Source: a virus. Taken from it: DNA of 32,379 nucleotides. Position 1 is the stretch's first letter. Every line of letters begins with the position of its first letter. A program made the translations under genes and the position numbers. The notes under the pieces were generated by a model. That model did no database searches and was not told where the DNA came from. It worked only from the letters and a program-made list of their open reading frames with translations. Shown here piece after piece: positions 11,322-32,188 of this stretch. The DNA lies in the UHGV virus genome UHGV-0235014; one strand, 5' to 3'.

Positions 11322-11849
11322 ATGGCACTCACCGACAAGCAAGAAATGTTCTGTCGCGAGTACCTCATCGATTTAAACGCCACGCAAGCGGCTATTCGGG
11401 CGGGGTACAGCGCAAAAACAGCCAACCGTACTGCGTCCGAAAACATGTCAAAACCTGACATACAACTCAGAATCGCCGAACTGAAAGCACAACGCAATGA
11501 TCTTGTTGGTATTAATGCAGAATATGTACTTAATCGCCTTATTGAAATCGACCAGATGGATGTGCTTGACATTCTCCTGCAAAACGGTGAGCTAAAACCC
11601 ATTAAAGACTGGCCTAAGGTATGGCGCACAACGTTATCAGGAATGGATGTCGTGGAGATGGCATCCGCAGATAGCGCCGCACTCCTGAAGAAAATCAAAT
11701 GGCCTGATAAGGTTAAAAACCTCGAACTTCTTGGTAAGCATGTTTCTGTTCAGGCGTTTAAAGAACAAGCTTCTCACGAACTAACAGGCAAAGACGGCGG
11801 CGCAATCCAGATTGAAACATCACCGATGAGCACTCTATTCGGAAAATGA
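11322..11849 (+). CDS. terminase small subunit
   Basis: 175 aa; MALTDKQEMFCREYLIDLNATQAAIRAGYSAKTA typical TerS N-terminal HTH motif; precedes TerL with ATGA overlap. Confidence 0.8.
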   Translation: MALTDKQEMFCREYLIDLNATQAAIRAGYSAKTANRTASENMSKPDIQLRIAELKAQRNDLVGINAEYVLNRLIEIDQMDVLDILLQNGELKPIKDWPKVWRTTLSGMDVVEMASADSAALLKKIKWPDKVKNLELLGKHVSVQAFKEQASHELTGKDGGAIQIETSPMSTLFGK

Positions 11850-13261
11850 CCTCGATTAATCCTATCTTTGAACCGTTCATTGAGGCGCATCGCTACAAAG
11901 TCGCCAAAGGCGGTCGAGGTAGCGGTAAATCATGGGCAATTGCGAGACTGCTTGTTGAAGCGGCGCGTCGGCAGCCTGTGCGTATTCTCTGCGCTCGTGA
12001 ACTGCAAAACAGTATCAGCGATTCGGTAATCCGGCTGCTTGAAGACACCATCGAGCGTGAAGGATATTCGGCTGAGTTTGAAATTCAGCGTTCAATGATT
12101 CGTCATCTCGGAACGAATGCTGAATTCATGTTCTACGGCATAAAAAACAACCCGACGAAGATTAAATCGCTCGAAGGCATTGATATCTGCTGGGTGGAAG
12201 AAGCGGAAGCGGTAACGAAGGAATCATGGGATATCCTGATCCCAACCATCCGTAAGCCGTTCTCTGAAATATGGGTGAGCTTTAACCCGAAGAACATCCT
12301 CGACGATACCTATCAGCGATTCGTCGTAAATCCTCCCGATGATATTTGCCTGCTGACGGTGAACTACACCGACAACCCGCACTTTCCTGAAGTTCTCCGT
12401 CTGGAGATGGAAGAGTGCAAACGCAGAAATCCGACACTGTATCGTCACATCTGGCTTGGTGAGCCAGTAAGCGCAAGTGATATGGCAATCATCAAACGTG
12501 AATGGCTTGAAGCCGCAACCGATGCGCACAAGAAACTCGGATGGAAAGCGAAAGGCGCTGTTGTCTCTGCGCATGACCCGTCAGATACAGGACCGGATGC
12601 TAAAGGTTATGCATCGCGCCACGGTTCGGTAGTTAAGCGCATTGCCGAAGGTCTGCTGATGGACATCAATGAAGGTGCTGACTGGGCAACTTCGCTGGCG
12701 ATTGAAGACGGCGCTGACCACTACTTGTGGGATGGCGATGGCGTTGGTGCAGGGCTACGCAGACAGACAACGGAAGCATTCTCCGGTAAGAAAATCACCG
12801 CTACGATGTTCAAGGGCAGCGAATCGCCATTTGATGAAGATGCACCATATCAGGCCGGAGCATGGGCTGATGAAGTCGTGCAGGGCGACAACGTTCGCAC
12901 TATTGGCGATGTATTCCGCAATAAGCGAGCGCAATTCTATTACGCGCTGGCTGACAGGCTGTATCTGACATATCGGGCGGTTGTCCACGGTGAGTATGCA
13001 GACCCCGACGACATGCTGAGTTTCGACAAAGAAGCGATAGGCGAGAAGATGCTGGAGAAGCTGTTTGCAGAACTGACGCAGATTCAGCGCAAATTCAATA
13101 ATAACGGGAAGCTGGAGCTTATGACTAAGGTCGAAATGAAGCAGAAGCTCGGTATTCCATCTCCTAACCTGGCTGATGCGCTGATGATGTGTATGCATTG
13201 CCCGGAGTCGGCTGCGCAACCCGACTATTCCAGTTACTCAATTCCTTGTGGTGTAGGTTGA
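11846..13261 (+). CDS. terminase large subunit
   Basis: 471 aa; Walker A KGGRGSGKS near N-terminus, nuclease C-domain; canonical position. Confidence 0.9.
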   Translation: MTSINPIFEPFIEAHRYKVAKGGRGSGKSWAIARLLVEAARRQPVRILCARELQNSISDSVIRLLEDTIEREGYSAEFEIQRSMIRHLGTNAEFMFYGIKNNPTKIKSLEGIDICWVEEAEAVTKESWDILIPTIRKPFSEIWVSFNPKNILDDTYQRFVVNPPDDICLLTVNYTDNPHFPEVLRLEMEECKRRNPTLYRHIWLGEPVSASDMAIIKREWLEAATDAHKKLGWKAKGAVVSAHDPSDTGPDAKGYASRHGSVVKRIAEGLLMDINEGADWATSLAIEDGADHYLWDGDGVGAGLRRQTTEAFSGKKITATMFKGSESPFDEDAPYQAGAWADEVVQGDNVRTIGDVFRNKRAQFYYALADRLYLTYRAVVHGEYADPDDMLSFDKEAIGEKMLEKLFAELTQIQRKFNNNGKLELMTKVEMKQKLGIPSPNLADALMMCMHCPESAAQPDYSSYSIPCGVG

Positions 13262-13262
13262 T

Positions 13263-15461
13263 ATGGCAGAAAAAAAGATGACTGACTGGCATCGCAAGGT
13301 GCTGTGCAACTTTGATAATGCCTGGTCAGCAACGCAGGATATGCGTGAGCAGATTATTGAGGCTCAACGTTTCGTCCGGGTGTCCGGCGCACAGTGGGAA
13401 GGCAGCACAAACGCTGGTTACTCATTTGATGAAGGCAGGTTTGAGCATTATCCGCGTTTTGAACTGAATAAGATTTCCCGTGAATGTGATCGCATCATTG
13501 GCGAGTATCGGCAGAATCGCATCAGCGTTAAATTCAGGCCGAAGGATGACAAGGCATCGGAAGCGTTAGCCGAAAAGATGAACGGCAAATTCCGCGCTGA
13601 TTATCAGGAAACATCCGGTGGCGAAGCGTGTGATAACGCATTTGATGATGCTGTAACGGGCGGATTCGGTTGTTTCCGCATGTGTGCTGATTACGAAGAT
13701 GAAATGGATCCGAGTAACGAGCAGCGACGCATCAGCCTTCTTCCTGTTTACGACCCAGCGACATGCGTCTTCTTCGATCAGGACAGCAAGCAATATGACC
13801 GCTCTGATGCTATGTGGGCTATGGAAATGTTCTCCATGACGCCTAAAGCGTTCGAGGCTGAATACCCTGATTCCATCGCGGCAAGCCTTTCTCGTGATGA
13901 CACTGGCACTCAATATGACTGGTCAACGCCCGATGCCATCTATGTTGGACGCTACTACGAAGTTCGCATAGAGAAGGTGAAGCTCACGGCGTGGCGCAAC
14001 CCTGTTAGCGGAGAAACGGCAATCTATGATGAAGAGCAAATCAAAGATGTTGTCGACGAGCTAACCGATGGCGCATTCGAACTGATTGGTGAGCGAACGG
14101 TGAAGAAACGCCGCGTTTATTGCGGCCTTCTGTCTGGCGCTGAATGGCTGGAAGAACCAAAGCGTATTCCGGGAGAACATATTCCACTCATCCCGGTATA
14201 TGGGCGTCGCTCATTTGTTGATAATCAGGAGCGAATCGAAGGCCACGCAGCAAAAGCGATGGATGCACAGCGTCTTGAGAACCTGATGGTTTCCATGATT
14301 GCAGATAACGCTACTCAGGCTGGCGGTGATGGCATTCCTGTAGTTGATGTTGACATGATTCCTGGTCCTCTCGCCAATCATTGGGCGGAGCGCAACAAAA
14401 AGCGCCCGGCGTTCCTGCCGATGGTAAGTCTGAAAAACAAAAACGGAGATATTACTGCGCAGGCTCAGGTCAGCAGTTATACACCTCCGACACAAATGCC
14501 TCCTGCTCTTGCCGGGCTATTGCAGTACACCGGAACGGCTATTCAGCAAATTACAGGTGCGTCGCAGCTTGAGAATATGCCGAGCAACGTCGCTACCGAT
14601 ACCGTTGATAGCATCTTTAACCGGATGGACACGCAGTCCTATATCTACATGGACAACATGGCTAAATCCATGCGCCGCGCTGGCGTCGTGTGGCTTTCTA
14701 TGGCTCGTGAAGTCTATGGCAGCGATACGCCAATGCGCATTGTTAATGAGGACGGCAGCGATGACGTGGCGCTGATGACTGGTGAAGTGGTTGACCGTCA
14801 GACAGGGCAGGTTATCGCGCTTAACGACCTTTCGCAGGGTAACTATGAAGTGACTGTCGATGTCGGTCAGTCGTTCGCTACTCGCCGTGATGCAACGGTT
14901 AAGTCGTTACTTTCCATGCTGGCACTTATCCCACCAGGAACGCCGAAGCACGACCTTGTATCGTCGATGATTCTCGACAATATGGACGGCGAAGGGATGG
15001 ATGACCTTAAAGAATACAACCGCAATCAGTTGCTTCTGTCTGGAGTTATCAAGCCGAGAACGCCAGAAGAGCAGCAGATGGTTGAGCAGGCGAAACAACA
15101 ACAGGCCAGTCAGCCAGATCCGGCTATGGTTGCAGCGCAAGGTCAGCTTCTTGCTGGTCAGGCTGAATTGCAGAAAGCGCAGAACGAACAGGCAGCCATT
15201 CAGGTTAAAGCATTCCAGGCACAGACTGATGCTCAGGTTGCTGCGGCAAATGTTGTGAAAATCCTCGCATCTGCCGATAGTCAGCAGAAATCTGATATCC
15301 GCGAGGCTCTGAAACTGCTCGGACAGTTCCAGCAACAGCAAGGAGACAATGCCCGTGCTGATGCAGAGCTTGTCCTGAAAAGTCAGGCACAGGGTCATGC
15401 GCAGCGCATGGACATCAGCAGCATCCTACAAAAATCAACTCAGCAACAACCACAGCAGTAA
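13263..15461 (+). CDS. portal protein (P22 gp1-like with Gln-rich C-terminal barrel)
   Basis: 732 aa; ..KRRRVY...GEHIPLIPVYG.. and Q-rich C-terminus parallel P22 portal. Confidence 0.9.
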   Translation: MAEKKMTDWHRKVLCNFDNAWSATQDMREQIIEAQRFVRVSGAQWEGSTNAGYSFDEGRFEHYPRFELNKISRECDRIIGEYRQNRISVKFRPKDDKASEALAEKMNGKFRADYQETSGGEACDNAFDDAVTGGFGCFRMCADYEDEMDPSNEQRRISLLPVYDPATCVFFDQDSKQYDRSDAMWAMEMFSMTPKAFEAEYPDSIAASLSRDDTGTQYDWSTPDAIYVGRYYEVRIEKVKLTAWRNPVSGETAIYDEEQIKDVVDELTDGAFELIGERTVKKRRVYCGLLSGAEWLEEPKRIPGEHIPLIPVYGRRSFVDNQERIEGHAAKAMDAQRLENLMVSMIADNATQAGGDGIPVVDVDMIPGPLANHWAERNKKRPAFLPMVSLKNKNGDITAQAQVSSYTPPTQMPPALAGLLQYTGTAIQQITGASQLENMPSNVATDTVDSIFNRMDTQSYIYMDNMAKSMRRAGVVWLSMAREVYGSDTPMRIVNEDGSDDVALMTGEVVDRQTGQVIALNDLSQGNYEVTVDVGQSFATRRDATVKSLLSMLALIPPGTPKHDLVSSMILDNMDGEGMDDLKEYNRNQLLLSGVIKPRTPEEQQMVEQAKQQQASQPDPAMVAAQGQLLAGQAELQKAQNEQAAIQVKAFQAQTDAQVAAANVVKILASADSQQKSDIREALKLLGQFQQQQGDNARADAELVLKSQAQGHAQRMDISSILQKSTQQQPQQ

Positions 15462-18398: not shown

Positions 18399-19817
18399 AT
18401 GCCGATTCAGCAACTTCCGCTTATGAAAGGTGTCGGCAAAGACTTTCGAAACGCCGACTATATCGACTATCTGCCAGTAAATATGTTGGCTACACCCAAA
18501 GAAATCCTTAACAGCAGCGGATATCTTCGCTCATTCCCGGGCATTGCAAAACGTTCTGATGTGAACGGTGTATCTCGAGGCGTCGAGTACAACATGGCGC
18601 AGAATGCTGTTTATCGCGTGTGTGGTGGCAAGCTGTACAAAGGAGAAAGTGAAGTCGGTGATGTTGCCGGAAGTGGTCGCGTATCAATGGCGCATGGTCG
18701 GACATCACAGGCGGTAGGCGTTAATGGTCAACTTTTCGAGTATCGCTATGATGGCACGGTTAAAACCGTCTCAAACTGGCCTGCAGACAGCGGATTTACG
18801 CAGTATGAATTAGGTTCGGTTCGTGACATTACTCGCTTACGTGGGCGTTATGCGTGGTCAAAAGACGGTACTGATTCATGGTTTATCACTGATCTTGAAG
18901 ACGAATCGCATCCTGACCGCTACAGCGCACAATATCGGGCAGAATCACAGCCTGACGGCATCATCGGCATCGGAACATGGCGAGACTTCATCGTCTGCTT
19001 TGGCTCATCGACGATTGAATATTTCTCCCTGACTGGTGCAACCACAGTTGGTGCTGCTTTGTATGTCGCACAGCCATCGCTGATGGTGCAGAAAGGCATT
19101 GCCGGGACTTACTGCAAAACGCCGTTTGCTGATTCGTATGCGTTCATCAGCAATCCGGCAACAGGTGCGCCGTCTGTGTACATCATCGGTTCCGGTCAGG
19201 TGTCACCAATCGCCAGCGCGAGCATTGAGAAAATCCTCCGCTCCTACACTGCTGATGAACTGGCTGATGGTGTGATGGAATCGCTGCGATTTGATGCTCA
19301 TGAGTTGCTGATTATCCACCTTCCGCGCCATGTTCTCGTGTACGACGCATCTTCAAGCGCCAATGGTCCGCAATGGTGTGTGCTGAAAACAGGCCTGTAT
19401 GACGATGTGTACCGCGCTATCGACTTCATTTACGAAGGCAATCAGATAACGTGCGGCGATAAGCTGGAATCGGTGACCGGGAAATTGCAGTTCGATATCA
19501 GCAGCCAGTACGACAAGCAGCAGGAACATATTTTATATTCTCCTTTAATAAAGGCAGATAACGCTTTAATAAATGACCTTGAATTAGAAACATCGGGCGG
19601 CGTGTGTGATAGAATAGATAAAATATTTATATCAGCCACTACAGATGGAATTAGTTACGGTCGTGAGCAAATGGTCGTATTACAAAAACCATTTGTATAT
19701 GACAATCGCGTTTTATGGCGAAAAGTTGGTCGAGTTAGACGCCTCATTGGATTTAAATTCAGAGTTATTGCAAAAGGTCCTGTTACATTATCAGGCCTTT
19801 CTATTCGTGTAACATAA
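18399..19817 (+). CDS. tail hub protein (P22 gp10-like)
   Basis: 472 aa, same length class as P22 gp10, synteny; last ~100 codons are AT-rich. Confidence 0.8.
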   Translation: MPIQQLPLMKGVGKDFRNADYIDYLPVNMLATPKEILNSSGYLRSFPGIAKRSDVNGVSRGVEYNMAQNAVYRVCGGKLYKGESEVGDVAGSGRVSMAHGRTSQAVGVNGQLFEYRYDGTVKTVSNWPADSGFTQYELGSVRDITRLRGRYAWSKDGTDSWFITDLEDESHPDRYSAQYRAESQPDGIIGIGTWRDFIVCFGSSTIEYFSLTGATTVGAALYVAQPSLMVQKGIAGTYCKTPFADSYAFISNPATGAPSVYIIGSGQVSPIASASIEKILRSYTADELADGVMESLRFDAHELLIIHLPRHVLVYDASSSANGPQWCVLKTGLYDDVYRAIDFIYEGNQITCGDKLESVTGKLQFDISSQYDKQQEHILYSPLIKADNALINDLELETSGGVCDRIDKIFISATTDGISYGREQMVVLQKPFVYDNRVLWRKVGRVRRLIGFKFRVIAKGPVTLSGLSIRVT

Positions 19818-19838
19818 ATCGAAACTAAAGGAGTAGAT

Positions 19839-20384
19839 ATGTTGAGTGAAAACGCAAAAGATATTCCTGGATATGAAGGTTTATATGCCGTAACAGAGGA
19901 TGGGCGAGTATATTCTCACTCACGTGTTGTTAAAGCTGCGCATGGCAGCACGCAACTCAGAAAGGGGCGGTGGCTAAAACAACACGAGAATAATAAAGGT
20001 TATCTATATTTGCCACTTAGTGTTGATGGAGTTAAAGTAAAATGGCTTGTGCATAGGCTTGTCGCTCTTGCTTTCGTCCCCAATCCAGAAGGCAAGCCGT
20101 TCATAAATCACATAGATAACAACCGAAAAAATAATAATGCTTCTAATTTAGAGTGGTGTACTCAAAAGGAGAATATGAAGCATTGCTCATCTCAAGGCAG
20201 GGTGAAGTTTCCGGCTTTAAAAGGAGAAAATAATCCAATTTCAAAGCTATCATATGAGCAAGTAATAGAAATAAAGAAATCAAAGGGAGTTAATCAAAGA
20301 GAGCTTGCTAAAAAATACTGTGTCAGTCAGACGGTGATTCACAATATCCAGTCTGGTAAATCGTGGAGGCATGTTAATGGCTGA
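19839..20384 (+). CDS. HNH homing endonuclease (NUMOD4 + HNH_3 + C-terminal HTH)
   Basis: 181 aa; [18 protein letters not shown] (NUMOD4), [22 protein letters not shown] (HNH), C-terminal HTH; AT-rich; inserted between gp10 and gp26. Confidence 0.85.
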
Positions 20385-21078
20385 TTCGAATCTCAATGTG
20401 CCGGTAATCATCCAGGCTACACGACTCGATACATCAATCCTTCCACGCAATATATTCAGCCAGTCTTACCTGCTGTATGTCATTAATCAGGGGGCTGATG
20501 TCGGCGCAATTGCCGGGAAGGCAAATCAGGCTGGTCAGGGCGCTTACGATGCCCAGGTAAAAAACGATGAACAGGATGTCGAACTGGCTGATCACGACGC
20601 AAGAATCACCGCAAACACAAAAGCGATAAATCTACTTGAGGTCAGGTTAACAACTGCCGAAGGGAAGATAGTCGTACTGCGTAGCGATGTTGATTACTTG
20701 CTGGATGAGGTTATCGATATTCAGGCGCATCTGGTCACTGTTGACCAAAGACTGGATGAGGTAGAAAACGATGTCTCTGGCATTAAGAGTGATTACGTAT
20801 CGAAAACCGTAACCGAATTGCAGTCTCTTGAGTCACCGCTGGATGTAAAAACATCATATTCAGTTGATGGAATTCAGGTTGTTGGAGCAAGAAATACCGG
20901 ATGGACTGCAGCCACAGGTACACCTCTTCTTGGCTCATTCAACGCTAACCAGTCATACACAGTCGGCACTACGTACACACAATCCGAAGTCGCAGCCCTC
21001 GCTACAGGTTTGCAGCAGGCGCGGCAGCGTATTCTGGCGCTTGAAACGGCACTTAGATTACATGGGCTGATTGACTGA
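20377..21078 (+). CDS. tail needle protein (P22 gp26-like)
   Basis: [68 protein letters not shown]... matches gp26 N-terminal domain and trimeric coiled coil. Confidence 0.8.
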
Positions 21079-25485: not shown

Positions 25486-26124
25486 TTAATTGCGAATGGA
25501 ATCGCGGAACTCTTTGCTTGATAGAAAAGGATCTGTTCTCCTTAACTCATCATAGTTTTTATTAAACTTTCTTGCTTCACCTGGGTATCTGTTGAACAAA
25601 ACATTGCAGAAAAAAGAGAGCAATAACTCACATATGAATGCTAATACCCTGAAAAATAAAGGTATAAAAAGAAGGGAAGGTTCATTGAAGTCTCTATTCC
25701 AAACAAAATAGACAATCATCCCGACATACCAAATTGATATCCCTATACTGATGATTGTTCCAACAGAGGTAACTACGATCCCGATTAAGTCGGACAGTCT
25801 GTTTGCCAGTAACTCATTTGAGTATCTTGCAATCATATACCGCCAACATTTTGCAATATCATCCTGATCTGTAGAGTCTTCTGGAATAGCTAGGCTTCTA
25901 CATATTGAAGTAGCTCTTTTTTTCTCAACTCTTTTTGAGATCCATCCATTAAAGAGATACATCAACACCTGCGTTGCTATTCCTGCACCAAGTGATATCA
26001 AAGACATCCCCAAAAATCTCCATCCTGGAGATAGTGACTGGTACTGCCAAACAAAAAAAATTAAAAAACCCAATGAGCCTATGACATAGGCTGATGTATC
26101 GCTATATATATCTATTTTTTTCAT
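25486..26124 (-). CDS. polytopic inner-membrane protein; candidate superinfection exclusion (SieA-position) protein
   Basis: Minus strand, ATG 26124 with AAGGAG SD; ~5 predicted TM segments; very AT-rich; downstream of and co-oriented with a repressor gene, between gp16 and the ant module where P22 carries sieA. Confidence 0.7.
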   Translation of the reverse strand: MKKIDIYSDTSAYVIGSLGFLIFFVWQYQSLSPGWRFLGMSLISLGAGIATQVLMYLFNGWISKRVEKKRATSICRSLAIPEDSTDQDDIAKCWRYMIARYSNELLANRLSDLIGIVVTSVGTIISIGISIWYVGMIVYFVWNRDFNEPSLLFIPLFFRVLAFICELLLSFFCNVLFNRYPGEARKFNKNYDELRRTDPFLSSKEFRDSIRN

Positions 26125-26188
26125 TGAGTAGCCACTCCTTAGTTTTGAGCAGAACACCGGATGATAATGTGTCGCTTCCTAAAGGATA

Positions 26189-26830
26189 TCAAAGCAACGG
26201 GATTTCAAGGTAAACTGCGGTTGCCAAAATACTAACATCTTCATTTCTAACAAGAATATTAGGATACATTGGGTTTAGGGATACTAAGTTTGTCTCTATT
26301 TCACCAATGTAAACCTGCTTGAAGCTCAATATTTGCTCTTTATCCAATGATGCTATTACATAATCTTTGCTTTTAGCTTTTACTAGAGGGCTGAACGTGA
26401 CAACTGATCCTCTGGGAAAGCTAATACCTGAACTTGTAGTCATAGCTTCACCTTCAATAGTCAATGCAAATGCAGAGTCACCAACATTGTATATTGCCGG
26501 ATGAAATCTAGACGATGAATGTTCACCTGTGTTTAGGTAATGCATAACTTCATCTAGTTTGAGGATTGGTATTTGCTTTACCAGAACGTCAGGCATGACG
26601 TTTTTTGTTCCAGGCCCCTGACCTTCACCCAGAGCTAACCACTCAGCCGTAGTGCCTAATGCGTTGGCTAATGCCTGCAATACACGAAGCCGTGGTTTAG
26701 CCTCACCACCCTCGTATGCAGCTATTTGACGTTGAACAACACCAGCTAATTTTGACAACTGCGCCTGCGTCATACCCCTGGACTGTCTTGCCAGAGATAC
26801 TCTTGATGGGAATTGATCGTCAAAATTCAT
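26189..26830 (-). CDS. CI/LexA-like repressor (HTH_XRE + S24-like domain with nucleophile Ser replaced by Ala)
   Basis: 213 aa; HTH MTQAQLSKLAGVVQRQIAAYEGG; C-domain aligns to 434/lambda cI but has GEAM in place of GDSM; Lys of FKQV retained. Confidence 0.8.
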   Translation of the reverse strand: MNFDDQFPSRVSLARQSRGMTQAQLSKLAGVVQRQIAAYEGGEAKPRLRVLQALANALGTTAEWLALGEGQGPGTKNVMPDVLVKQIPILKLDEVMHYLNTGEHSSSRFHPAIYNVGDSAFALTIEGEAMTTSSGISFPRGSVVTFSPLVKAKSKDYVIASLDKEQILSFKQVYIGEIETNLVSLNPMYPNILVRNEDVSILATAVYLEIPLL

Positions 26831-26929: not shown

Positions 26930-27103
26930 ATGACTGAAAAGATATCTTCCATCAAGCCGCGTCAGGTTCGTTTTACAGAAAAGGTTGATTCACATATCCG
27001 CGAATCAGCAAAAAGATGCCATAGGTCAATTCAGGCAGAGATAGCTTATCGAATGGAGTTATTGATGAAACTTGAGGCAAAGGGCGATGTTGTCATCCAA
27101 TAA
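26930..27103 (+). CDS. Arc-like ribbon-helix-helix protein (57 aa)
   Basis: ATG 26930 with CAGGAG SD; basic beta-strand PRQVRFTEKV then two helices typical of RHH; directly precedes antirepressor; short, not in ORF track. Confidence 0.6.
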   Translation: MTEKISSIKPRQVRFTEKVDSHIRESAKRCHRSIQAEIAYRMELLMKLEAKGDVVIQ

Positions 27104-27176
27104 AAATAGTGAAGCCCGGCAGTGCGCGAACACAAACCGGGCCTCTATGTCAGTAACCGTATGCAAGGAAACTAAC

Positions 27177-27803
27177 ATGAATATTGTAGCAAAATCAGAT
27201 TACAACTTCCACGGAGTTGAGTTGGTGCCCACCCGTGATATGCATGGTGTTTGGTTTACATCATCTAATATTGCATCTGCACTTAAATATGCAAATAGCC
27301 GTGCAGTAACAATGATTTATAACAAGTATAGCGATGAGTTTAGCGCCGGAATGACTCAGGTACTCGAAGTGAGTACCTCAGGAAATTATCGCAAAAAAGT
27401 GCGAGTTTTCTCACTACGCGGTGCCCACCTAATCGCGATGTTTGCTCGCACTCCGGTAGCCAAAGAGTTCCGCCGCTGGGTGCTGGATATTTTGGATCGG
27501 CAGGCAGAATGCTCACCGATTGCAAAACAGTTTACTGACGAAGAACTGGTTAATCTCTGCTACTTACAATTGTGGATGGAGAAGAGTCAACAAATGTGCA
27601 AACACATCTACCCAGGAATGAAGCAAATTGGTTCTGAGCTTTCAGGAAGAATTTACGATATTGCATATGAGACTCGCTATATGTCAGAAGAAACCAAGAA
27701 ATCACTTCTTCGTGAAATGAAGAATCTTGATACCAACAATTTTGTCGTAAAGAACGCTCAGCCAATGCTGACAAAACTGCGCGGCGAGGAATGGATTCAT
27801 TGA
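27177..27803 (+). CDS. antirepressor-like protein with N-terminal Bro-N domain
   Basis: 208 aa from ATG 27177 (AAGGA SD); YNFHGVELVPTRDMHGVWFTSSNIASALKY fits Bro-N pattern. Confidence 0.75.
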   Translation: MNIVAKSDYNFHGVELVPTRDMHGVWFTSSNIASALKYANSRAVTMIYNKYSDEFSAGMTQVLEVSTSGNYRKKVRVFSLRGAHLIAMFARTPVAKEFRRWVLDILDRQAECSPIAKQFTDEELVNLCYLQLWMEKSQQMCKHIYPGMKQIGSELSGRIYDIAYETRYMSEETKKSLLREMKNLDTNNFVVKNAQPMLTKLRGEEWIH

Positions 27804-29242: not shown

Positions 29243-32188
29243 ATGACAGACATTACAGCCAATGTTGTGGTAAGCATGCCTTCGCAACTCTTCACTATGG
29301 CTCGTTCTTTTAAAGCGGTAGCCAATGGCAAAATTTATATCGGTAAAATTGACACTGACCCAGTAAATCCTGAAAACCAGATTCAGGTTTATGTGGAGAA
29401 TGAAGACGGTTCTCACGTTCCTGTTTCGCAACCAATAATCATTAACGCTGCTGGATATCCGGTATATAACGGACAGATTGCCAAATTCGTTACCGTGCAA
29501 GGCCATTCTATGGCTGTTTATGATGCGTATGGTGCACAGCAGTTCTATTTTCCCAATGTGCTGAAGTATGACCCTGATCAACTACGGCAGCAATTAGAAG
29601 ACCCAGATGGAGCGAATAAATACCCAAAACTTCAGATAGCAAGATGGAGAGACAGTTATGATGTAAGAGGTTGGGGGGCTATTGGTGATGGTGTTCATGA
29701 TGATACATCAGCTCTATCAGAATTACTTTCTGTTGCAACAGGTGGTGAAAAGATAGATGGGCGAGGGCTTACTTTTAAAGTATCAACTCTTCCAGATGTC
29801 AGTCGATTTAAAAATGCTCGTTTTTTATTTGAGAGAATACCGGGTCAGCCTCTTTTTTATGCTTCTGAAGATTTTATCCAGGGAGAGTTATTTAAAATTA
29901 CAGATACACCGTGGTACAACGCCTGGACGCAGGATAAAACGTTTGTATATGACAATGTCATCTATGCGCCTTTTATGGCTGGAGACCGCCATGGTGTAAA
30001 TAACCTCCATGTTGCATGGGTTCGCTCAGGAGATGACGGGAAGACCTGGACAACGCCGGAATGGCTTACAGATTTACATGAAAACTATCCCACAGTTAAC
30101 TATCACTGCATGAGTATGGGGGTTGTCAGAAATCGCCTTTTTGCTGTAATTGAGACGCGGACCGTGAGCGGAAATAAACTGCAGGTTGCAGAGTTGTGGG
30201 ATCGCCCAATGAGTCGCAGCCTTCGCGTTTATGGTGGTATAACGAAAGCAGCAAATCAGCAAGTCGCTTATATTCGCATTACTGATCACGGATTATTTGC
30301 TGGTGATTTTGTCAACTTCTCAAATTCTGGTGTTACAGGTGTTACCGGGAATATGACGGTGACTACTGTTATTGATAAAAATACTTTTACAGTTACGACG
30401 CAAAATACCCAGGATGTGGATCAGAATAACGAGGGTAGATACTGGAGTTTTGGTACATCATTTCACTCGTCACCATGGAGAAAAACCAGTCTTGGAACTA
30501 TTCCTTCTTTTGTTGACGGAAGCACTCCTGTTACTGAGATTCACAGTTTTGCGACGATTAGCGATAACAGTTTTGCTGTTGGCTACCATAATGGTGATAT
30601 TGATCCACGCGAGCTTGGGATACTCTATTTCTCTGATGCTTTCGGTTCTCCTGGTAGCTTTGTTCGCAGACGCATACCTGTAGAATATGAGGCGAATGCA
30701 TCTGAGCCATGTGTAAAATATTATGATGGCATTCTGTATCTGACGACCAGGGGGACATTAAGTACTCAACCCGGTAGTTCATTGCACAGAAGCTCTGATT
30801 TAGGTACATCATGGAATTCTCTTCGCTTCCCAAATAATGTTCATCACTCAAACCTTCCTTTTGCCAAAGTTGGCGATGAGCTGATTATTTTTGGCAGTGA
30901 GCGCGCATTTGGTGAGTGGGAAGGAGGAGAACCTGATAACCGTTATGCAGGAAATTATCCAAGAACATTTATGACCAGAGTTAACGTCAATGAGTGGAGT
31001 CTGGATAATGTAGAGTGGGTTAATGTTACTGATCAGATTTATCAGGGCGGAATAGTTAACTCTGCGGTTGGTGTTGGTTCAGTTTGTATCAAAGACAACT
31101 GGCTGTACTACATTTTCGGTGGGGAAGACTTTCTAAACCCATGGAGCATAGGGGATAACAACAGAAAATATCCTTATGTTCACGATGGTCACCCGGCTGA
31201 TTTGTATTGTTTCAGGGTGAAAATTAAACAGGAAGAATTTGTTTCAAGGGATTTTGTCTACGGAGCCACTCCTAACAGAACGCTTCCTACTTTTATGTCG
31301 ACGTCAGGCGTGAGGACGGTTCCTGTACCCGTTGATTTCACAGATGATGTTGCCGTCCAGTCACTGACTGTCCATGCAGGTACATCAGGACAAGTTCGCG
31401 CGGAAGTCAAACTTGAGGGTAATTACGCCATTATTGCGAAGAAAGTACCGTCTGATGATGTTACCGCTCAGAGATTAATCGTTAGCGGCGGTGAAACAAC
31501 GTCTTCAGCAGATGGTGCAATGATAACGTTGCATGGTTCCGGAAGCAGTACTCCACGTCGCGCGGTATATAACGCACTCGAACATCTTTTTGAGAACGGA
31601 GATGTTAAACCTTATCTTGATAATGTAAATGCTCTTGGTGGTCCGGGAAACAGGTTCTCGACAGTTTATCTTGGCTCCAATCCTGTGGTTACCAGTGACG
31701 GAACATTAAAGACAGAGCCGGTCTCTCCTGACGAAGCATTGCTGGATGCCTGGGGTGACGTCAGGTATATCGCTTATAAATGGCTGAACGCTGTCGCTAT
31801 AAAGGGGGAAGAAGGGGCGAGGATACATCATGGTGTAATCGCGCAGCAACTTCGTGATGTTCTTATTTCTCACGGACTCATGGAAGAAGAAAGCACAACA
31901 TGCCGCTATGCGTTTCTTTGCTATGACGATTATCCCGCAGTATATGATGACGTCATTACTGGCCAAAGGGAAATGCCGCTGACTGATAATGACGGGAGCA
32001 TCATTGTTGATGAGGATGATAATCCAGTGATGGTAATGGAAGACATCATTGAGCGCGTTGAAATAACGCCAGCAGGATCTAGATGGGGGGTCAGACCTGA
32101 TCTCTTATTCTATATCGAGGCGGCATGGCAGCGCAGAGAAATAGAAAGAATAAAAGCTAGGTTAGACTTAATAGAAGGGAAGCACTAA
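29243..32188 (+). CDS. tailspike protein: P22 gp9-like head-binding domain + endosialidase (endo-N-acylneuraminidase) + C-terminal intramolecular chaperone (S74-like) domain
   Basis: 981 aa; N-terminal ~115 aa conserved tailspike head-binding domain; Asp-boxes SGDDGKTW (30026..30049) and SSDLGTSW (30791..30814); C-terminal region with Ser-x4-Lys (VVTSDGTLK, Ser at 31694..31696) typical of auto-cleaving chaperone domains. Confidence 0.85.

Follow-up and report, generated by a model that had tools for sequence, protein, structure and literature searches.

We analysed a stretch of viral DNA of 32,379 nucleotides (nt; UHGV virus genome UHGV-0235014), called here the window, in which a free-standing gene for a predicted HNH homing endonuclease (homing-endonuclease gene, HEG) lies between two tail genes, gp10 and gp26. 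The tail hub gene gp10, whose product is also called 'packaged DNA stabilization protein' (Pfam Phage_stabilise, 938 bits), spans positions 18399-19817. The HEG follows at 19839-20384, and the resident sequence of the tail needle gene gp26 occupies 20377-21078, all three on the plus strand. Within gp10 we distinguish a resident portion, codons 1-377 (18399-19529, plus strand), from a foreign, AT-rich 3' end, codons 378-472 with the stop codon (19530-19817, plus strand). This tract is linked to the HEG and makes up the left part of what is described below as a cassette. The window is a P22-like (Lederbergvirus, CUS-3-like) E. coli prophage. Its positions 19400-20500 match the E. coli SCU-124 and A42 chromosomes with 100% identity, and phage HZ41 is 97% identical to it over 18399-21078.

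The HEG product has 181 amino acids (aa), and RefSeq names it merely 'NUMOD4 domain-containing protein'. Two Pfam domains score above their gathering thresholds, NUMOD4 (aa 7-60, 19857-20018; 44.1 bits, cut-off 23.4) and HNH_3 (aa 70-113, 20046-20177; 40.8 bits, cut-off 24.8), in line with the HNH gene that an earlier sequence-only reading of this DNA had placed between gp10 and gp26. A C-terminal three-helix unit of the helix-turn-helix (HTH) type (aa ~139-171, 20253-20351) has a weak profile match in the same search. The protein also matches PHROG 59, 'HNH endonuclease' (E = 3e-58), and aligns in sequence with the nicking enzyme I-HmuI (PDB 1U3E; E = 2.3e-12), where the predicted catalytic H91 (20109-20111) falls on the DH histidine of I-HmuI. 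All residues that are invariant in a 75-sequence family alignment (N90, H91, L104, W106, N112 and H115) are kept in the window protein, and N103 is present alongside N90, H91, N112 and H115.

A single-sequence AlphaFold model was unusable, with a predicted local distance difference test score (pLDDT) of 45.5, and a model based on a multiple sequence alignment (pLDDT 90.6) was used instead. Foldseek placed this model first with 1u3e_M over its full length (E = 1.3e-8, probability 1.00, 182 aligned columns), the only strong PDB match; the C-terminal three-helix unit resembles HTH domains of the Cro/SinR type. The enzyme does not look dead, as far as can be judged from the motif, the modelled fold and the ratio of non-synonymous to synonymous substitution rates (dN/dS) given below.

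The HEG has its own 5' leader (19818-19838, plus strand; AAATCGAAACTNAAGGAGTAGATATG), which carries a Shine-Dalgarno sequence, AAGGAG, at 19828-19833 and is common to the HEG types A, B, C and D introduced below. Promoter-like and terminator-like sites around the HEG are not in excess of those in shuffled sequence, so that the gene is most likely transcribed from the late operon and translated from its own Shine-Dalgarno sequence. We rejected a HEG encoded in a group I intron, since Rfam intron models have no match in 19000-21000 and the open reading frames (ORFs) of gp10 and gp26 are uninterrupted.

For comparison we used the HEG-free relatives HK620, CUS-3 and APC_JM3.2, with HK620 and APC_JM3.2 serving for the breakpoint alignment. 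Nucleotide identity of the window to HEG-free relatives stays at ~95% up to 19529 and is then 55-65%, ungapped, as far as the gp10 stop (19817), which places the breakpoint at 19529/19530, 288 nt before the end of the stop codon. The resident portion has 99% aa and ~95% nt identity to HK620 and APC_JM3.2, and codons 1-376 encode a protein 99% identical to that of HK620. Over codons 377-472 the picture is very different: 37 codons differ from HK620 non-synonymously, 39 only synonymously and 20 are identical, and amino-acid identity to the resident type is 61%. The GC content at third codon positions (GC3) drops from 0.52 upstream to 0.20 in this stretch, against 0.55 in a resident-type end.

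The composition of the whole locus follows the same outline. GC falls from ~0.52 to ~0.36 near 19500 and comes back up near 20400, while homology resumes exactly at the start of gp26. This agrees with the shift that the sequence-only reading had put at 19500, about 300 nt before the gp10 stop, and with the return to normal composition that it had seen at the gp26 start. The segment 19530-20376 has a GC content of 0.377, compared with 0.501 +/- 0.020 in windows of equal size from the structural operon (z = -6.2).

The gp10 ORF is complete, with 472 aa, equal in length to that of HEG-free phages, and dN/dS among variants of the AT-rich tract is 0.09. The AT-type end has 57-66% identity to all other known P22-like gp10 ends, including those of APSE and Sodalis phiSG1. 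The best explanation is that a foreign yet functional sequence has replaced the end of an essential tail-hub gene. One AT-type end (L110, 3501-3842) has an in-frame duplication of 9 nt, giving DRIDRIDRI instead of DRIDRI. Nucleotide conservation was uninformative as a guide to the target site, as among HEG-free phages the native 3' end of gp10 (92.8%) does not exceed the rest of the gene (93.8%) in conservation.

At the right-hand side, the gp10 stop and the gp26 start of HEG-free phages overlap, joined as TAATG. Relative to these phages the window has an insertion of 559 nt after the gp10 stop, and identity is back exactly at the gp26 start, TAATGGCTGA. The conserved 3' end of the HEG (20364-20384, plus strand; TGGAGGCATGTTAATGGCTGA) includes, 7 nt before the ATG of gp26, a GGAGG Shine-Dalgarno sequence (20365-20369), and its stop TGA (20382-20384) is built from gp26 codons 2-3. 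Codon 2 of gp26 is GCT at all HEG+ loci, as the TGA stop of the HEG requires, and gp26 polymorphism among these loci starts ~20 nt past the HEG stop. From sequence comparison, gp26 probably starts at the ATG at 20377 (MADSNLN..., as in HEG-free phages) and not at the in-frame ATG at 20371 of the ORF list; RefSeq entries of HEG+ prophages start gp26 at the earlier ATG. The overlap of HEG and gp26, already noticed in the sequence-only reading, is then 8 nt rather than 14. Because the 3' end of the HEG provides a ribosome-binding site for gp26 together with an overlapping stop and start, ribosome binding and translational coupling of gp26 are preserved and the operon stays functional.

We surveyed 5,426 complete E. 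coli genomes, ~914 of which have the gp10-gp26 region. The AT-type gp10 end is present in 56 of the ~914, an occupancy of ~6%. Most of these genomes (52 of 56) have a tract at least 96% identical, a number that equals the 16 genomes with HEG type A, the allele of the window, plus the 36 with type B (WP_000947776). The other four have a tract that is 86.5% identical; two of them were inspected and both carry type D (WP_042048397). An AT-type end without a downstream HEG was not encountered among the 56, counting two of the four 86.5% variants as inspected.

The same linkage is seen outside complete E. coli genomes. A gp10 C-terminal query fetched 91 loci from IMG/VR and GTDB, 20 of AT type and 71 of native type. 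HEG A, B or D stands immediately downstream in 20/20 AT-type loci, and 70 of the 71 native-type loci have no insert, the last one having an unrelated HNH_3/AP2 gene (type E). Complete metagenome loci with an AT-type end are all chimeric and HEG-bearing (8/8). The sequence-only reading had named an AT-rich gp10 end in relatives lacking the HNH gene as evidence against homing; no HEG-free AT-type end was found in the E. coli genomes, IMG/VR, GTDB or metagenome loci surveyed. Among close relatives, the cassette is thus polymorphic for presence and absence at one precise site.

Type E is a gene of 164 aa with HNH_3 and AP2 domains, found at the gp10/gp26 junction in phage vB_EcoP-683R2 (L003, 1922-2416) and at two further loci (L039 and L161). 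It is labelled 'endolysin' in GenBank. The gp10 end at these loci is essentially native (GC3 ~0.6), which is repeated by the last codons of type E (..AGGATTGAGTAATGGCT). It seems that HEGs have inserted independently at this junction, as at a hotspot.

HEG types A, B and D have a protein identity of ~50-55% among each other. The gene bodies of A and B are ~55% identical in nucleotides, yet the two loci are nearly identical in the AT-rich gp10 end (98%), in the leader and at the first codons, and the final 21 nt, TGGAGGCATGTTAATGGCTGA, are identical. Type D has the same leader and the same C-terminal residues, with a tract 86.5% identical to that of type A. The sharing of the leader, the first codons and the last 7 codons by A, B and D suggests, from these alignments, that gene bodies have been swapped by recombination within a fixed frame.

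The left boundary varies. Among 28 HEG+ loci the breakpoints fall into classes at 19499 ('long'), 19514 (one locus) and 19530 (the class of the window), with one mosaic (L089). The boundary zone (19499-19529, plus strand) lies inside a conserved patch, QFDISSQYxxQQEH; it is native in the window and synonymously recoded (ATCTTCA..A..A..A..G) in long-tract copies, in which the patch is recoded at 13/36 nt without change of amino acid. Native haplotypes of single-nucleotide polymorphisms differ right up to the left boundary of the tract.

Between type-A loci, mean pairwise identity is 99.0% for the HEG and 97.4% for the AT-rich tract, compared with 93.6% for gp10 nt 1-1098, the same value as among HEG-free phages, and 77% for the first 300 nt of gp26. 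Upstream of these loci there are at least four different gp4 alleles. As the HEG and tract are near-uniform and the flanks varied, one cassette is present in many phage backgrounds.

A related HEG, type C, is found at the other end of gp10. In many relatives it lies inside the gene after about codon 31 (examples are L021 3860-4700 from IMG/VR, Salmonella phage UPF_BP1 (L002), L022-L047 and L186); the equivalent region of the window, 18399-18510, has no insert. Type C is 55% identical to the window HEG overall, with the first 47 aa almost identical and the same 5' leader. At type C loci the native 5' fragment of gp10 is left upstream as a truncated remnant ORF, and the cassette brings a new AT-rich, recoded gp10 5' end (MAIQQLPLMKGLGKSAVNADYIDQLPVNLL...) that overlaps the HEG tail in another frame. 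In L010, L025, L041 and L186 type C occurs together with a type A or B HEG, so that gp10 is foreign at both ends.

Diverged relatives point to a long association of tract and HEG. In one diverged prophage (L018/L109) the HEG is 92% identical to that of the window and the end of gp10 is of the AT type. Synonymous divergence (dS) of L018 from the window is 0.51 for the HEG and 0.60 for the tract, with dN/dS of 0.07 and 0.09, respectively. For type D and a diverged D variant, dN/dS is 0.04. The HEG has therefore been under strong purifying selection, with dN/dS of 0.04-0.07 over dS values from 0.5 to above 2.

Further relatives of the HEG came from a protein-database search and were traced to contigs. 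In two of them, L196 and L198, the N-terminal part of gp10 is only 78-80% identical to that of the window, the HEG is 75% and 61% identical, and the gp10 end is 86% and 80% identical to the AT type. GC3 drops from 0.53 to 0.31 in L196 and from 0.58 to 0.28 in L198, and the position of the drop is similar in L018, L196 and L198, near codons 361-381. In a Providencia rettgeri prophage, the HEG at the gp10/gp26 junction is 68% identical; the C-terminal part of the gp10 of this prophage is 72% identical to the AT type versus 61% to the native type, with no drop in composition. This gp10 (L194 2180-3973, CP109846.1) has 597 aa, with a mid-protein insertion of ~125 aa compared with the 472-aa forms of E. 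coli and Salmonella.

Because HEG and tract diverge together across lineages, and three HEG alleles share the tract, these comparisons indicate that the tract has long belonged to the cassette and co-evolves with it, rather than being left over from one recent conversion event. With this refinement, the sequence-only reading, which saw a homing event that also converted the gp10 flank, is largely supported.

In its wider context, the window has the operon order terminase (11846-13261), portal (13263-15461), coat, gp4, gp10, the extra HNH gene, gp26, gp14, gp7, gp20 and onward, with an endosialidase tailspike last. P22-like phages package DNA by a headful mechanism. The tailspike (29243-32188) has a P22-type head-binding domain and endosialidase domains (End_beta_propel, 772 bits) like that of CUS-3, from which we take the phage to be CUS-3-like and specific for the K1 capsule. 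The lowest-GC island of the window is elsewhere, at 25486-26830 on the minus strand (GC 0.36 in the 847-nt window from 25536). It holds an ORF of 223 aa without Pfam match, adjoins a gene like HTH/S24-peptidase repressors and lies upstream of an Ant-like gene (27072-27803).

Taken together, the segment 19530-20384 is probably a free-standing homing-endonuclease cassette with an obligately co-transferred foreign gp10 3' end, located in the late (virion) operon. In the established model, a genome lacking the HEG is cleaved, the break is repaired by recombination from the HEG+ genome, and the flanks are co-converted (PMC2988022, PMC2790892). For the window, we infer nuclease activity, a target site and homing along the same lines. 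The enzyme would be made late in infection or after prophage induction and, on meeting a HEG-less relative in the same cell, would nick or cut its gp10-gp26 region. Recombinational repair with the HEG+ genome as template would then copy the HEG and, each time, the foreign gp10 end with it. The latter would always be included because it is only ~60% identical to the native end, so that the nearest homology usable for repair lies, to the left, upstream of ~19500-19530 and, to the right, where gp26 starts. One possibility is that the target site lies at the gp10/gp26 junction and is destroyed by the insertion; the other is that it lies inside native gp10, possibly in the QFDISSQYxxQQEH patch, with the recoded end conferring immunity. 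The strongest indirect arguments for an active nuclease, all drawn from comparison of sequences, would be the low dN/dS, the replacement of HEG alleles in identical flanks and the related HEGs in several genera. The conserved residues, the match to I-HmuI in sequence and fold and the dN/dS of 0.04-0.07 speak against the catalytically dead enzyme that the sequence-only reading had named as a second point against homing.

Several observations weigh against this interpretation. A single old insertion with ordinary recombination in the flanks would equally produce the linkage, the pinned boundary and the low diversity of the cassette, since a 60%-identical tract cannot recombine with native alleles, and the population-genetic patterns are consistent with homing without proving it. 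An occupancy of ~6% is below what a highly efficient drive would reach. Some copies are interrupted: E. coli M160133 (H136) has an IS1-family element near the HEG 5' end, L017/L102 have an insertion of ~0.8 kb near the HEG 5' end that severs the first HEG codons, and the type-B HEG of ETEC6333/6334 (H265-266) is seemingly disrupted. Searches for a donor phage whose gp10 is AT-rich throughout, by tblastn against 50,697 phage records and in GTDB species genomes, IMG/VR and metagenome contigs, gave none. Every match in these searches was a chimeric HEG+ locus or a native-type gp10, and the closest independent relative was the Providencia prophage. A protein-database search with the 95-aa C-terminal peptide of gp10 gave only fragmentary ORFs, of which P0002 is a frameshifted assembly of the type-A cassette.

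On another reading, the gp10 end and the HNH gene form a module acquired once from a distant P22-like phage and since passed on only by general recombination and vertical descent; the HNH gene would have stopped homing and would be carried as a passenger. Mosaicism is pronounced in P22-like phages, the gp4, gp26 and gp14 alleles around the cassette vary widely, the linkage is automatic given the missing homology, and the low occupancy fits as well. A functionless passenger is, however, hard to reconcile with dN/dS of 0.04-0.07 maintained to dS values above 2, with at least three HEG alleles swapped into identical flanks, with related HEGs at the same site in several genera, or with an intact HNH motif and predicted fold, and we consider this reading improbable. 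Very improbable in our view is an HNH protein that serves the phage itself, as a terminase-associated packaging nuclease or as a means to attack or exclude competing phages. Packaging factors are indeed known among phage HNH proteins (PMC12724721, PMC5304195), and marker exclusion by HEGs harms competitors (PMC2988022). The architecture here is that of I-HmuI homing enzymes, though, and an advantage over competitors would not speak against homing. We rejected the packaging variant on position, as the gene lies away from terminase and portal, and on distribution, as ~94% of close relatives package DNA normally without it.

A different question is whether the homing cassette works by cleavage and rescue, the target being inside the native gp10 3' end, possibly in the QFDISSQYxxQQEH patch ~300 bp upstream of the HEG, and the recoded end being an immunity or rescue allele. 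We regard this as a tentative option that falls short of even chances. In E. coli phages as in three diverged lineages, the compositional boundary is at about this conserved patch, the patch is synonymously recoded in long-tract copies, and the tract has been kept with the HEG through deep divergence and HEG allele replacement. The sister type C HEG at the other gp10 end also brings a recoded gp10 segment, and free-standing HEGs of T4 cleave DNA hundreds of bp away from where they are inserted (PMC2988022). Yet the short-class copy of the window is native up to 19529, which would leave a target wholly within 19482-19529 unprotected; a pinned boundary is equally expected if the patch is the only stretch similar enough for recombination; and the unrelated HNH/AP2 gene sits at the same junction with an essentially native gp10 end. 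The extended form, a natural cleave-and-rescue gene drive in P22-like gp10, in which sister HNH enzymes target conserved gp10 patches and each comes with its own cleavage-immune recoded end, is in our judgement rather unlikely. If it were true, A, B and D would replace the 3' 96 codons, and type C would give a new 5' end of ~37 codons, with the native fragment a dead remnant. The recoded gp10 ends would then be functional parts of mobile elements, co-evolving with their nucleases across genera.

Returning to the homing cassette as such, the locus accounts for a chimeric gp10 and a 'NUMOD4 domain-containing protein' annotation in ~1% of complete E. coli genomes. It also offers a genetically tractable system (relatives of P22, HK620, Sf6 and CUS-3) in which alleles with and without the HEG occur naturally. 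Three HEG alleles are interchangeable within one frame, a second, related HEG is found at the opposite end of gp10, and a foreign gene end of 288 nt is absolutely linked to the HEG. Such a system can be used to ask at what distance from its gene a free-standing HNH enzyme cuts, whether a linked recoded gene end gives immunity, and what share homing has in making prophage structural genes mosaic. Within the open-access literature that was searched, we found no published description of this locus or of free-standing HEGs in a P22-like virion operon.

As a process, the co-conversion of flanks by free-standing HEGs is well known from T4, SPO1 and lactococcal phages; such genes spread with co-conversion of their flanks and often cut far from their own position (PMC2988022, PMC2790892). 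In terms of the enzyme, the closest known systems are I-HmuI and I-BasI, HNH nicking homing endonucleases of the Bacillus phages SPO1 and Bastille. They share with the window protein an N-terminal beta-sheet NUMOD4 region, an HNH beta-beta-alpha-metal core and a C-terminal HTH, and their catalytic His and Asn residues are conserved in it. Enzymes of the I-HmuI type are nickases (PMC3017599). The I-HmuI gene itself lies in a group I intron of a DNA polymerase gene and its product nicks 3 nt from the intron insertion site (PMC3017599), whereas the window HEG, 27% identical, is free-standing between two tail genes, without an intron.

In terms of genetic arrangement, the locus is similar to intronless homing by SegF, SegG and MobE of T4, where an intergenic HEG lies by a conserved essential gene, is present or absent among close relatives, and has its flank co-transferred, the adjacent gene being diverged in HEG+ genomes (PMC2988022, PMC2790892). 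In contrast to the T4 HEGs, the cassette of the window belongs to a temperate P22-like podovirus and is at a tail hub/needle junction. Its linked flank goes beyond a few polymorphisms, being a 288-nt, 39%-diverged and strongly AT-biased gene end kept across genera.

The replacement of mobC/mobE by SegH/Hef in T4-related phages (Sandegren et al. 2005, cited in PMC2988022) likewise puts different HEGs into one intergenic slot. Here, A, B and D share identical flanks and the unrelated type E uses the same junction; unlike SegH/Hef, A, B and D are one family, whose members have almost exactly the same leader, first codons and last 7 codons. The I-HmuI-like HNH genes of lactococcal Skunavirus are also free-standing, cluster by insertion site and vary in presence, and polymorphism of neighbouring core genes has been attributed to homing (PMC12724721). 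They belong to another phage group and host, with most of the genes in early regions and marker exclusion shown experimentally for some (PMC12724721).

The best-supported view, from comparison with these systems, is that the locus would be a new instance of intronless homing by an I-HmuI-like HNH enzyme, a kind already known. What is notable, though not unprecedented in principle, is how large and how diverged the obligately linked gene end is, that it has persisted across genera, and that a sister HEG mirrors the arrangement at the opposite end of gp10.

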